NCBI GenBank assembly: GCA_020348445.1
Contig: CP070751.1
Span: 254,006 to 318,005 of the forward strand
DNA: 64,000 nucleotides
Source of the DNA: Thermoplasmata archaeon
GTDB taxonomy: Archaea > Thermoplasmatota > Thermoplasmata > GCA-020350865
Reading direction: 5' to 3'
The position numbers were made by a program, and so were the translations under genes. A model generated the notes under the pieces. It saw nothing but the letters and a program-made list of their open reading frames with translations. It did no database searches and was not told the origin of the DNA. Position 1 is the first letter of the stretch, and each line of letters starts with the position of its first letter. Of this stretch, positions 50,313-53,989 are shown piece by piece.

Positions 50313-51248
50313 TTAAAGGCTTCCCAACATCTCCGAGAATGCCTCAAGCCTCAACTTAACCTGCTTTGTTGTTTTTTTTGGCATGTCACCTTGAATCGTG
50401 AGGAACGGGTAGTTCAGATTCTTTCTAAATATATCGTCCTCAAGAAGGTGATGACATGCAAATTGAGTGTAATGGATTATGCCATCCACCCTTCTTCTTT
50501 TAAGTTCTTTTTCGAGGAATTTTAGCCTGAAATCCAGATTTCTGGCAAAGGTATAGTTGCAATAACTTTTTGCAAGTTCGTCGATATTCACCCCTGAAAG
50601 CCTTACAAATTCATAGGGCAGTTCATCGTAAACCACATGAAGCCCAAGCGATGCCAGATTCTCATGAAAATCAGGGTATATGGGAGGCACACCCAAAAGG
50701 GCTATCCTACTTAAGAAGTCGATATCCTCCTCCTTTACATTCTCAAGCAGCCTTTCAAATTCTGAAATGTCCCCTCTAAGATCGCTTGCTGAGACCATGA
50801 TCTCGAATGCCTTTTCTGCGGAAATCTTTCCAGCAATCCTTTTATCGTCGATCTCTAGAATCTTCTTTTTGATTTCCTTTACTTCCTTGAACGCTTTGTG
50901 TTCTTTTATTCCCCCCAAAAAGACGGTGAGCTCCTCCAACTGATCTTTGAGATAATCAGAGTCATCATCAAAAGGATAGAATAAAAAGAAGGTGGGAAGC
51001 CCTTTCATTTCCACCTTTTGCCCGTCGACGAGAGCATTGTGACAATCACCTCCTGCCACAACCACCAGATACTCAAGTGCAAGCTCATTTTTCAGTATCA
51101 TGTCCCTCCAGATGGCGGTCCAAGCACACAGCTTATTTGATGGCTGCAGATTCGATAGAGGTACGAAATTGTTGATATCACAGGGTTTTTTTCCACAGGC
51201 AAATATCAGCTCAGGTGGAATTAAGGCGGTGATGCCTACTTTTGTCAT
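50313..51248 (-). CDS. 2-hydroxyacyl-CoA dehydratase (HGD-D/FldB-C) family [4Fe-4S] subunit
   Basis: PPELIFACG, three Cys in KLCAW / GGDCHN / QFACHH, RIALLGVPP, VDGIIHY, LRLEAFSEML. Start ATG 51248 (track 51311). Confidence 0.8.
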   Translation of the reverse strand: MTKVGITALIPPELIFACGKKPCDINNFVPLSNLQPSNKLCAWTAIWRDMILKNELALEYLVVVAGGDCHNALVDGQKVEMKGLPTFFLFYPFDDDSDYLKDQLEELTVFLGGIKEHKAFKEVKEIKKKILEIDDKRIAGKISAEKAFEIMVSASDLRGDISEFERLLENVKEEDIDFLSRIALLGVPPIYPDFHENLASLGLHVVYDELPYEFVRLSGVNIDELAKSYCNYTFARNLDFRLKFLEKELKRRRVDGIIHYTQFACHHLLEDDIFRKNLNYPFLTIQGDMPKKTTKQVKLRLEAFSEMLGSL

Positions 51249-51402
51249 TTTACTTTCCTTCCTGTCAGGGTGGAGAACAAAGACGAATCCGATATTTATC
51301 GTTTTTGACAAACACTTTTAATAGGAATAAGCCCATGTATCTAATACTATTGTGAGCTCAACACAGATGTCTGATTAAAGAGAATATAAAGGGGAGGATC
51401 AA

Positions 51403-51780
51403 ATGAAGGAATTCAAGATTCAGGTAAAACACCAACCAGGAGAATTGGCAAAGGTAACAGAAACACTTGCGGCAAGAGCAGTCAACATTAAGGCAATAGC
51501 CAGTGAAGCTTTGGGGGAGGACGCCTTCCTTAGGGTTGTGACCAATGATGTTAATACAACCACGAAAGCACTGAAAGAATCAGGGACAAAATATGTGCAG
51601 AACGATTTACTGACATTGTCGCTTATAGACAGGCCAGGAGAGTTGGCCAAGGTGGCCAAAAAACTGGGCAAGGCCAAGATAAACATAGAATCCATCTATA
51701 TTTTGGGCCAAAAGGAGGGCAAAACAGAAGTGGCTTTGGTCGTGGATGATATGAAGAAGGCAAGCAACCTTCTTGGTTAA
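51403..51780 (+). CDS. Tandem ACT-domain protein
   Basis: Two repeats: QVKHQPGELAKV and LIDRPGELAKV...INIESIY. GGGGAGG SD. Confidence 0.88.
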   Translation: MKEFKIQVKHQPGELAKVTETLAARAVNIKAIASEALGEDAFLRVVTNDVNTTTKALKESGTKYVQNDLLTLSLIDRPGELAKVAKKLGKAKINIESIYILGQKEGKTEVALVVDDMKKASNLLG

Positions 51781-51863
51781 GTCCGCCCTCTCGCGAAAAT
51801 CCCTTCACATGGTAAGATACCTTTGAAATACTGTATTTCCAGGTTCTCACAAGAGGCCTTTTT

Positions 51864-52883
51864 ATGCATCTTTCAGATTTCGATTATCAGCTACCTACGC
51901 ACTTAATAGCACAAAGACCTGCGGAACCAAGGGACTCCTCAAGGCTAATGGTCATGCAAAGGGACATAATCGAGCATAAGAAATTTCGGGATTTAAAGGA
52001 TTATTTAGATCGTGGAGACATTTTGATTCTCAACGATTCAAAGGTTTTGCCTGCCAGAATTTTCGGAAAAAAAGTGACAGGCGGGAAGGTGGAAGTTCTT
52101 TTAGTTACTAAAGAAGATGAATCTACTTGGGAATGCCTAATAAAAGGTAAAAACATAAAGGAAAATACACGCCTTTTTTTCGGGGATAATGAATTGGTAG
52201 GGAAAATAATGGAGAGAATCGAGGGAGGAAGATATAGGATAGAATTTGAAGCACAAAAAGATCTAGGGGAAATATTAAAGAGAATCGGAAAAATGCCAAC
52301 CCCGCCTTACATAAAGGAGTTACTTTTGGATCAGGACAGATACCAGACTGTGTACGGTAAAGAAAATGGTTCAATTGCCGCGCCTACGGCGGGTCTGCAT
52401 TTTACTGAAGATTTTCTAGCACAGCTTCGCGAAAAGGGAGTGGTTATTACCCCTCTCACCCTCCATGTCAGTGTGGGAACGTTTCTTCCCGTAAAGGTGA
52501 AATACATAAGGGAACACAAGATGGAACCTGAACTTTTTGAAATAGATAACAAAACTGCAAAAACCATAAATTCAGCAAGGGAAGACAAGAAGAAAATAAT
52601 TGCAGTTGGCACCACCACATTAAAGGCTCTTGAGAGTGCCTGCGATGATAATGGTAGAATTTCCGAAACAAAAGGAGAAAGCGATCTGTTTATTTATCCT
52701 GGCTACGAATTCAAGTTCAAATTGGATGGCCTTCTCACAAATTTTCATCTTCCTAAATCCACGCTTATTATGCTCGTTTCAGCTTTTGCAGGAAAGGATA
52801 CTATACTGGATTCTTATAACGTTGCCATAGAACATTCGTACAGATTCTACAGCTTTGGAGACGCCATGTTGATATTAAAGTGA
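51864..52883 (+). CDS. queA: S-adenosylmethionine:tRNA ribosyltransferase-isomerase
   Basis: SDFDYQLP..LIAQRP..RD.SRL, NDSKV.PAR, PPYI, YQTVY, AAPTAGLHFT, TLHV..GTF, TNFHLPKSTL..LVSAF, YRFYSFGDAMLI. Confidence 0.96.
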   Translation: MHLSDFDYQLPTHLIAQRPAEPRDSSRLMVMQRDIIEHKKFRDLKDYLDRGDILILNDSKVLPARIFGKKVTGGKVEVLLVTKEDESTWECLIKGKNIKENTRLFFGDNELVGKIMERIEGGRYRIEFEAQKDLGEILKRIGKMPTPPYIKELLLDQDRYQTVYGKENGSIAAPTAGLHFTEDFLAQLREKGVVITPLTLHVSVGTFLPVKVKYIREHKMEPELFEIDNKTAKTINSAREDKKKIIAVGTTTLKALESACDDNGRISETKGESDLFIYPGYEFKFKLDGLLTNFHLPKSTLIMLVSAFAGKDTILDSYNVAIEHSYRFYSFGDAMLILK

Positions 52884-52888
52884 TTATA

Positions 52889-53989
52889 ATGTTCGAAATT
52901 GAATATGAGGACGAAAAGTCAGAGGCAAGGGCAGGAACATTAACCGTCAACAATAGAATCTTCGAAACTCCTGGATTCCTACCTGTTGCCACAAAGGCAG
53001 ATGTAAAGCTCATCTCCCCTGATGAGTTACAGGAGATCGGAGCTTCGGGAGTCATCACAAACGCCCTTGTTCTTTTCCTAAGACCGGGCCTTGAGGTAGT
53101 TGAAGCAGCAGGCGACATTCACAAGTTCATGTCATGGGACGGTATCGTCTTCTCGGACAGCGGCGGCTTTCAGATGCTCAACTCCGACTTTCTTGTGAAG
53201 GTCACAGAAGAACTAGTAACATTTAAATCACCATTTACAGGTTCCATACTTGATTTTTCCCCAGAATTATGCGTTGAAATCCAGATGCGGTTAGGTTCTG
53301 ATATTGCCATGGTACTTGACGACTGCCCTTCATATGGAAGCAGTTACGATGATATCTTAGCATCGACAAAACGAACCCTTTTCTGGGCAAAGAGATTTAG
53401 AGATTCCCATAAAAACCAGTCCCAGGAAGTCTTTGGAATTGTCCAGGGCGGGGTGTTTAAGGATTTGAGGGATAATTGTGCAGAGAGTCTTGTAAAAATG
53501 GATTTTGACGGATACGCGATCGGGGGGCTTTGCATCGGTGAGCCCAAGGATGTGATGCACGAGGTAATCCAGAAAACGACACCTCTTTTACCTCCCCAAA
53601 AACCCAGGTATTTAATGGGTGTGGGTTCCCCGGAGGACATGCTCAAGGCAATATCATGCGGGGTTGACATCTTTGATTCTGTTTTTCCCACAAGAAACGC
53701 CAGGCACAACACTGTGTACACCAAGAACGGAAAGGTGAATTTGGGTAAGGAGAAGTTCAACTCGGATATTGGGCCTATTGATGAAGGATGCAAGTGCTAC
53801 ACCTGCAGCAAGTTTTCACTGTCCTATGTAAATCATCTACTTCGGGAGTACGAGTACTTTGGCATGCGGTTGGCAACCATACACAACCTGCATTTTCTCG
53901 TGAATCTGATGAAGGAGGCAAGAGAGGCCATTTTAGAGGGAAGGTTCGAGGGATTTAAAGGGGAATTTCTACAAAATTATAAATTTTAA
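52889..53989 (+). CDS. tgt: Bacterial-type tRNA-guanine(34) transglycosylase
   Basis: TPGFLPVAT, DSGGFQ, LDDCP, IVQGG, GGLCIGE, RYLMGVG, FDSVFPTRNAR, Zn site CKCYTC...HN. About 367 aa with no PUA extension. Overlaps the queA stop (GTGA). Confidence 0.93.
   Translation: MFEIEYEDEKSEARAGTLTVNNRIFETPGFLPVATKADVKLISPDELQEIGASGVITNALVLFLRPGLEVVEAAGDIHKFMSWDGIVFSDSGGFQMLNSDFLVKVTEELVTFKSPFTGSILDFSPELCVEIQMRLGSDIAMVLDDCPSYGSSYDDILASTKRTLFWAKRFRDSHKNQSQEVFGIVQGGVFKDLRDNCAESLVKMDFDGYAIGGLCIGEPKDVMHEVIQKTTPLLPPQKPRYLMGVGSPEDMLKAISCGVDIFDSVFPTRNARHNTVYTKNGKVNLGKEKFNSDIGPIDEGCKCYTCSKFSLSYVNHLLREYEYFGMRLATIHNLHFLVNLMKEAREAILEGRFEGFKGEFLQNYKF

Follow-up and report, generated by a model that had tools for sequence, protein, structure and literature searches.

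The conversion of 7-cyano-7-deazaguanine (preQ0) to 7-aminomethyl-7-deazaguanine (preQ1) on the way to queuosine (Q) is catalysed by QueF, a small NADPH enzyme that forms a covalent thioimide on a cysteine. Among iron-sulphur (Fe-S) enzymes, the double-cubane protein DCCP reduces acetylene in an ATP-dependent, cyanide-inhibited manner, its physiological substrate and role being unknown (PMC7317905), and class I benzoyl-coenzyme A (CoA) reductases use ATP to drive a reduction at low potential, which takes place at a [4Fe-4S] site whose coordination is left open at one position (PMC11971306). Co-localized genes for QueA, QueH-like proteins and Tgt have been described in 34 archaeal genomes, including Methanosarcinales, in a paper in which QueF or any preQ0 reductase has no occurrence (Castelle et al. 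2021, PMC8204110). Here we examine a 311-amino-acid protein of the HGD-D family encoded head-to-head with a run leading to queA and tgt in a 64-kb window (the whole stretch of DNA analysed, positions 254006-318005 of contig CP070751.1) from the closed, 5.16 Mb genome of a Thermoplasmatota archaeon. We propose, with a probability of roughly 0.75, that this protein and an activase make up a putative preQ0 reductase, Fe-S-based and driven by ATP, by which anaerobes replace QueF. The proposal is made because of a gap in the pathway, features of the protein family, its linkage to que genes, its mutual exclusion with QueF across genomes and the displacement of QueF within a shared gene cassette.

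The pathway gap and the HGD-D protein beside queA and tgt

The genome encodes PTPS/QueD, a QueC adjoining the radical-SAM (S-adenosylmethionine) enzyme QueE, QueH (C1:5095080), QueA and a bacterial-type tRNA-guanine transglycosylase (Tgt), as well as a second, archaeal-type TGT paralogue. QueF is absent genome-wide, as judged by domain profiles (PF14489 and TIGR03139) and by tblastn searches run with a pair of archaeal QueF queries up to an E-value of 1, and so is QueG. Since QueD, QueE, QueC, Tgt, QueA and QueH are all present and QueF is missing, the route from GTP to Q-tRNA has a single unfilled step in this genome, the conversion of preQ0 to preQ1; the source of the genome is an archaeon with bacterial-type Q genes. 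Salvage was rejected as a full explanation for this genome because it has no known Q-precursor transporter, the Vut_1/YhhQ and QueT families being both absent genome-wide, although a transporter of some other family may exist.

Within the window, queA (51864-52883, plus strand), encoding the tRNA preQ1(34) S-adenosylmethionine ribosyltransferase-isomerase (PF02547, 425 bits; TIGR00113, 403 bits; NF001140, 443 bits versus a cut-off of 324), and tgt (52880-53989, plus strand), encoding the tRNA-guanine(34) transglycosylase (TIGR00430, 442 bits versus a cut-off of 306.75), both exceed the NCBIfam equivalog cut-offs for the bacterial enzymes. Tgt carries the motifs DSGGFQ, LDDC (at the Cys158 position) and GGLCIGE, the last with a bulky Ile where bacterial enzymes carry Val233 and eukaryotic ones Gly. 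To judge from these motifs, its pocket is of the bacterial, preQ1-accepting Cys158 type, with a bulky residue at the position of the Gly of eukaryotic queuine enzymes. What the positions of this pocket do is in part general knowledge. For Cys158 and the Val233/Gly position, their role is treated in PMC3660597.

The HGD-D gene, a candidate to encode the catalytic part of a preQ0 reductase that depends on ATP and has a single subunit type, occupies positions 50313-51248 on the minus strand. Its open reading frame (ORF) spans 50313-51311, and the likely start is the ATG at 51248, which is preceded by a Shine-Dalgarno-like stretch, GGAAGGAAAG, and therefore yields 311 amino acids, the length of nearly all homologues. 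A sequence-only reading of this DNA had described a compact, single HGD-D protein with three cysteine ligands kept, a divergent spacer of about 155 nt to the queA-tgt run, and a window encoding neither an activator nor the QueF and QueG/QueH steps. This description is accurate on every point: ORF, Pfam match and alignment agree on the protein; the intergenic region (51249-51402) measures 154 nt when read from the sequence; no BcrAD/HgdC-type ATPase lies within the window, all seven genomic copies being found elsewhere (at 1.39, 2.43, 2.94 and 3.10 Mb); and no QueF, QueG or QueH is encoded within it.

The 311-residue protein, 100% identical to P0002, matches Pfam HGD-D (PF06050) with 97.8 bits against a cut-off of 28.4 over profile positions 4-342. 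Its AlphaFold2 model (pLDDT 96.7) matches, in Foldseek searches, 3O3M/3O3N, 8S02, 9GAI, 6ENO and 7YYL with E-values from 1e-12 to 2e-14 and TM scores of 0.73-0.83, so that its fold is that of HadB/C, BzdN, MbdN and DCCP; by profile, the nearest solved sequence is DCCP (6ENO/7YYL; E = 6e-12). Three cysteines, C41, C69 and C265, are invariant across 129 members and 55 representatives of clusters at 50% identity, as are E13, D24, N26, N27, W43, D68, D156, E209, R241 and R252. The protein has no match to the QueF domain (PF14489); it resembles QueF in its proposed function and is not a member of the QueF family.

The 420 close homologues, of about 311 residues, are almost all archaeal (Thermoplasmata, Methanoperedens and ANME-2), the nearest belonging to metagenome-assembled genomes (MAGs) of Thermoplasmata and Methanomassiliicoccales, and some 3,900 homologues occur in anaerobic bacteria as well (Ammonifex, Geobacter, Desulfuromonadales, Desulfotomaculales and similar groups). 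In the protein tree, the family and a divergent ‘second tier’ of homologues (27-31% identity) form one clade that is located far from the seven other HGD-D paralogues of this genome.

Neighbourhoods, distribution and other features of the window

In 63 of the 78 related loci, the HGD-D gene is followed at its 3' side, on the same strand, by a gene for a BcrAD/HgdC-type ATPase of about 232 residues (180 bits to TIGR00241), and fused HGD-D-ATPase proteins of 590-830 residues exist. The family thus combines a single type of catalytic subunit with an activase, which is the arrangement of DCCP/DCCP-R and differs from the alpha/beta pair of the dehydratases. A second, paralogous HGD-D subunit gene was found neither in the window nor among the conserved neighbours in the 78 loci, and the four-subunit set BcrABCD/BzdNOPQ does not occur at loci of the family, each of which holds at most one catalytic-type and at most one ATPase gene; four-subunit sets of the benzoyl-CoA-reductase type are located at other places in the genome (1.39 and 2.94 Mb).

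The lack of an activator, which the sequence-only reading had noted for the window, is thus not a trait of the family: only the window's own clade has lost the dedicated activase, a peptidase gene following the HGD-D gene in its place. The best candidate electron injector for the window protein may be an orphan tandem BcrAD/BadFG pair outside the window (G000:C1:2428171-2429741), which comprises the best-scoring ATPases of the genome. The tandem has no HGD-D partner nearby, is flanked by genes for CARDB surface proteins, and is kept in two sister genomes (G002 and G004), both of which are without a dedicated activase.

The family clusters recurrently with genes of the queuosine/7-deazaguanine pathway in unrelated lineages. 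Its neighbours are queA, tgt, queH, queC, mptA or the genes of a TGT/DpdA-like cassette; no CoA-transferase, fermentation or other CoA-metabolism genes are found among them. Of 80 genome loci, 13-14 have the queA-tgt pair next to the homologue, and in the protein tree these linked loci represent at least four subclades (the window's clade, ANME-2, family f31 and locus L093). The head-to-head layout is repeated in loci L025-L028, and also in ANME-2 and further Thermoplasmata loci, where no ACT gene intervenes. A single 7-kb stretch holds queH, tgt, queA and the HGD-D gene in family f31; a bacterial-looking contig carries a co-directional HGD-D-DUF2065-queA-tgt-yajC operon; and in one bacterial genome (G545) the HGD-D, activase and queC genes overlap. 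In 23 Methanoperedens loci (for example, L030:3983-4933), the gene for the GTP cyclohydrolase MptA (TIGR00294, 459 bits) is located two genes upstream of the HGD-D/activase pair.

Across genomes, the HGD-D family fills the hole in the pathway: it co-occurs with QueA and excludes QueF. The counts that follow are not corrected for relatedness, and many of the genomes are incomplete MAGs. Among 301 Thermoplasmatota genomes, 67 have a full-length QueA; 28 of these hold the HGD-D family, 35 hold QueF, none holds both, and the four with neither are MAGs that are 73-89% complete. Counted by taxonomic family, the same genomes give 10 families with the HGD-D family and 15 with QueF, a single one (f43) appearing in both lists with different genera. 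In 201 Methanosarcinia, the HGD-D family is present in all 13 genomes with QueA and in one of the 188 without it. Of 50 genomes holding the family (holders, below), 43 have QueA, 40 of them above the cut-off, queA being cut short in the other three (G003, G029 and G031); QueH occurs in 33 of 37 holders with QueA, and QueC in 39 of 40 holders. Among 161 genomes of the bacterial phylum of G545, four are holders, and all four have QueA and lack QueF.

Two further observations concern these genomes. A Methanoperedens holder carries QueF beside a second QueC copy on a separate contig (G048:C66:700-2734), which may be an island or a binning artefact. Ten Thermoplasmatota genomes (G141, G283, G316, G328, G343, G094, G112, G124, G130 and G163) contain QueA-like matches of 77-155 bits, below the cut-off of 267 bits, either full-length or covering the C-terminal half only, together with neither QueF nor the HGD-D family; these matches may represent a diverged QueA paralogue with another role.

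The holders without QueA include Methanocaldococcus indicus, Methanosarcina UBA7 and M. barkeri 3, and these carry the HGD-D gene and its activase inside a common cassette that is mobile, conserved and widespread. The cassette (L136:9430-20596 in M. barkeri 3; further loci at L101:9860-20223, L076:551-11655, L137:10001-19513 and L138:9531-19011) encodes a GNAT protein, a short TGT/DpdA-like protein, proteins of about 270, 160 and 1,300 residues, the last with weak similarity to BrxC/D, a PglZ-like protein and a HerA-like ATPase. The TGT-like protein has 786 homologues, nearly all annotated as PF01702 or PF23859; phmmer of this protein against PDB sequences returned nothing, and PADLOC found in the cassette only HerA-like matches and one weak DpdA match. 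Haloprofundus halophilus and Halapricum desulfuricans possess the same cassette with QueF in place of the HGD-D/activase pair. In BLASTP comparisons, six cassette genes of the methanogen version have orthologues in the haloarchaeal one; among these, the TGT-like proteins share 39% identity (E = 3e-84), HerA is 57% identical, and the large proteins match with E = 1e-155. The haloarchaeal cassettes are flanked by integrases or McrBC.

Among 80 metagenome cassettes (L139-L218), six contain the HGD-D/activase pair, 17 contain QueF, none contains both, and the rest contain neither. The pair lies upstream of the TGT-like gene in five of the six cassettes and at the far end of the cassette in L139, and QueF lies upstream of the TGT-like gene in all 17. 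In total, nine cassettes have the HGD-D/activase pair and 19 have QueF, never both. Because the same cassette carries either QueF or the pair, this is an in-situ non-orthologous displacement within one gene set. The cassette looks like an undescribed island for defence or for 7-deazaguanine modification of DNA, in which a preQ0-reductase module (QueF, or HGD-D with its activase) is optional.

The window holds several other features. Between the HGD-D gene and queA lies a gene for a small tandem-ACT protein (51403-51780, plus strand; 125 residues; Pfam ACT, ACT_AHAS_ss and ACT_8), probably a ligand-binding regulator and a clade-specific insert. The gene is confined to the window's clade (L025-L028), where its product, at 84-89% identity, is more conserved than QueA (65-76%), Tgt (70-74%) and the HGD-D protein (67-76%). 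In one member of this clade (L027; Methanomassiliicoccales archaeon bin396, CP070739.1), queA is reduced to an 80-residue fragment (L027:9151-9390) and tgt is gone, and the HGD-D and ACT genes are both intact. A giant ORF of more than 3278 residues (54166-63999, plus strand) begins just 3' of tgt and runs past the end of the window. Between positions 10001 and 44000, a block of about 34 kb, G+C content is about 0.31-0.38 as against about 0.43-0.47 outside, recovering near 44 kb; this block may be an island or a gene block of different composition. Scanned against Rfam, the window shows no riboswitch and no member of any other RNA family, and ARAGORN detected no tRNA in it.

A proposed reaction and its alternatives

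We consider it likely that the reaction is an archerase-driven, four-electron nitrile reduction at a [4Fe-4S] cluster, serving tRNA queuosine in archaea and in anaerobic bacteria as well as 7-deazaguanine DNA-modification islands, and that the protein is the first member of the HAD/BCR/DCCP group with a physiological substrate other than a CoA compound, possibly acting on bases bound in nucleic acid. By analogy with its relatives, the enzyme would be a homodimer of a single subunit type, as in DCCP, each subunit holding a [4Fe-4S] cluster on C41, C69 and C265 with one iron site left open, a feature also known from the [4Fe-4S] site of other family members. Fed by ferredoxin, the BcrAD/HgdC-type activase would inject low-potential electrons one at a time, each paid for by ATP; the nitrile of preQ0 would bind at or near the open iron and be reduced to the amine in four electron transfers, with the invariant acidic, amide and arginine residues holding the deazaguanine base. 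The substrate might be either the free base or preQ0 already within tRNA or DNA. In this archaeon, the resulting preQ1 would feed the adjacent bacterial-type Tgt and QueA, and QueH would complete queuosine.

Several points weigh against this proposal. All the support is comparative. Nitrile reduction by QueF manages without electrons of low potential, which makes a route driven by ATP look costly. The window's clade is without a dedicated activase, and its best ATPases reach 170-190 bits on the activase profile versus 385 for a cognate one. Much of the Thermoplasmatota pattern is carried by 22 second-tier homologues, mostly of family f25, whose neighbourhoods contain the activase and no que genes. 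Two or three of the 50 holders also have QueF. The sampled genomes are related and hence not independent, and many are incomplete MAGs. In the phylum of G545, about half of the genomes are without QueF, so that the four-out-of-four agreement there is weak; nearly all of those QueF-less genomes also lack the HGD-D family and are presumably salvagers. Finally, the TGT-like protein of the cassette is uncharacterised.

One alternative, which we regard as unlikely, retains the pathway and changes the chemistry, the enzyme then carrying out reductive salvage to preQ1 from queuine or a Q derivative, or acting on some other 7-substituted deazaguanine. The gene contexts all point to deazaguanine transglycosylases and leave the exact chemistry unfixed, and QueF-less bacteria commonly live by salvage; yet it is specifically QueF whose place the family takes, in phyletic distribution as well as at one and the same position of the cassette, queC, whose product makes preQ0, shares one operon with the HGD-D gene and QueC accompanies it in nearly all holders, QueA requires the aminomethyl group of preQ1, and the archaeon studied here has no known transporter for Q precursors. 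Replacement of QueG/QueH by a non-orthologous epoxyqueuosine reductase seems exceedingly improbable. QueG is absent and the deoxygenation of an epoxide is in principle conceivable for low-potential chemistry, but QueH is encoded in this genome and in most QueA holders, sometimes in the same cluster, and cassettes without QueA, where no epoxide would arise, nevertheless carry the pair where others carry QueF. The sequence-only reading had offered the protein as an anaerobe-specific, non-orthologous enzyme for either reduction of the Q pathway and had made its case depend on the genome not already encoding QueF and QueG/QueH. The part concerning QueF is strongly supported, at the level of comparative genomics, by que linkage and the absence of QueF, and QueG is likewise missing; the epoxyqueuosine role was rejected because QueH is present.

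An ordinary 2-hydroxyacyl-CoA dehydratase or benzoyl-CoA reductase acting on a CoA thioester, with queA-tgt adjacency being a coincidence or a hitch-hiking relic, would agree with the Pfam family and with a fold that is that of HadB/C and BzdN, in a genome with eight other HGD-D genes and seven activases. We nevertheless find it very unlikely, and largely refuted already by the gene contexts: alpha/beta pairs are absent from the 78 loci, as are CoA-transferase and fermentation genes from the vicinity, the family is a clade of its own far from the paralogues of the genome, and its linkage to que, queC and TGT-like genes recurs across unrelated lineages in mutual exclusion with QueF. The sequence-only reading had named three outcomes that would refute it. 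On examination, que linkage is seen in several independent lineages and operon types, QueF is missing from the genome while QueH is encoded there, and no partner subunit or context assigns the family to amino-acid fermentation. Equally hard to credit is an accessory role in electron delivery to, or repair of, another Fe-S enzyme of the pathway, such as QueE or QueH. Activase-dependent proteins are electron-transfer devices and the pathway does contain Fe-S enzymes; however, genomes of the QueF type have QueE as well, so that a QueE helper and QueF would not be mutually exclusive, the cassettes are devoid of both QueE and QueH, and the invariant polar residues of the pocket suggest a small-molecule site.

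We found no paper that connects queuosine or QueF with HGD-D, 2-hydroxyacyl-CoA dehydratase, benzoyl-CoA reductase or activase, and a literature search on MJ0007 returned nothing relevant; in our view, the preQ0 reductase proposal makes a previously undescribed connection between a superfamily and a pathway step that are each known. If correct, it would add a new enzyme for a known reaction and close a gap both in the archaeal bacterial-type queuosine pathway, reported in 2021 with QueA, QueH and Tgt and no preQ0 reductase, and in many strictly anaerobic bacteria. It would also provide the first physiological substrate for the single-subunit, activase-driven branch of the dehydratase/benzoyl-CoA-reductase/double-cubane superfamily, place nitrile-to-amine reduction at an Fe-S cluster alongside the NADPH/thioimide route of QueF, and require correction of thousands of annotations that now read ‘2-hydroxyacyl-CoA dehydratase’. 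It would also open the way to direct tests for Q in the tRNA of archaea and for a possible modification of methanogen DNA of the preQ1 type.

Comparison with known systems

The archaeal Q genes surveyed by Castelle et al. (2021, PMC8204110) belong to the same pathway, the step from preQ0 to preQ1 and a link to HGD-D being unaddressed there. With QueF (PF14489, T-fold), the HGD-D protein shares the proposed net reaction, the place in the pathway and the position in the cassette, the two having mutually exclusive distributions. They are unrelated in sequence and fold: by contrast with QueF, the HGD-D protein belongs to Fe-S proteins of the HAD/BCR/DCCP fold, is paired with an ATP-hydrolysing activase and occurs in strict anaerobes.

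HgdAB/HadBC (3O3M) with HgdC/HadI share with it the Pfam family, the fold (TM scores of 0.75-0.78), a three-cysteine [4Fe-4S] site and, at most loci of the family although not in the window's clade, an archerase-type activator. They are, however, alpha/beta heterodimers that act on CoA thioesters in amino-acid fermentation, whereas the HGD-D protein has one subunit type and que or TGT-like neighbours instead of CoA-related ones. Class I benzoyl-CoA reductases (BzdNOPQ and MbdONPQ; 8S02 and 9GAI) share the fold, with TM scores of up to 0.83, and differ in having four subunits and in reducing aromatic CoA esters, where the HGD-D protein is built on one type of catalytic subunit and lacks a second subunit of the double-cubane kind.

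DCCP/DCCP-R (6ENO, 7YYL) differs in several respects from the HGD-D protein, which is about 110 residues shorter and keeps three of the six cluster cysteines in a profile alignment to 6ENO/7YYL; since only three are kept, a single [4Fe-4S] cluster is expected instead of [8Fe-9S]. The NCBIfam double_cubane model (NF040772) gives 32 bits against a cut-off of 350 and matches the C-terminal 90 residues only. What the two groups share is their organization, one subunit type served (outside the window's clade) by a dedicated BcrAD-type ATPase, with fusions of the two found in both.

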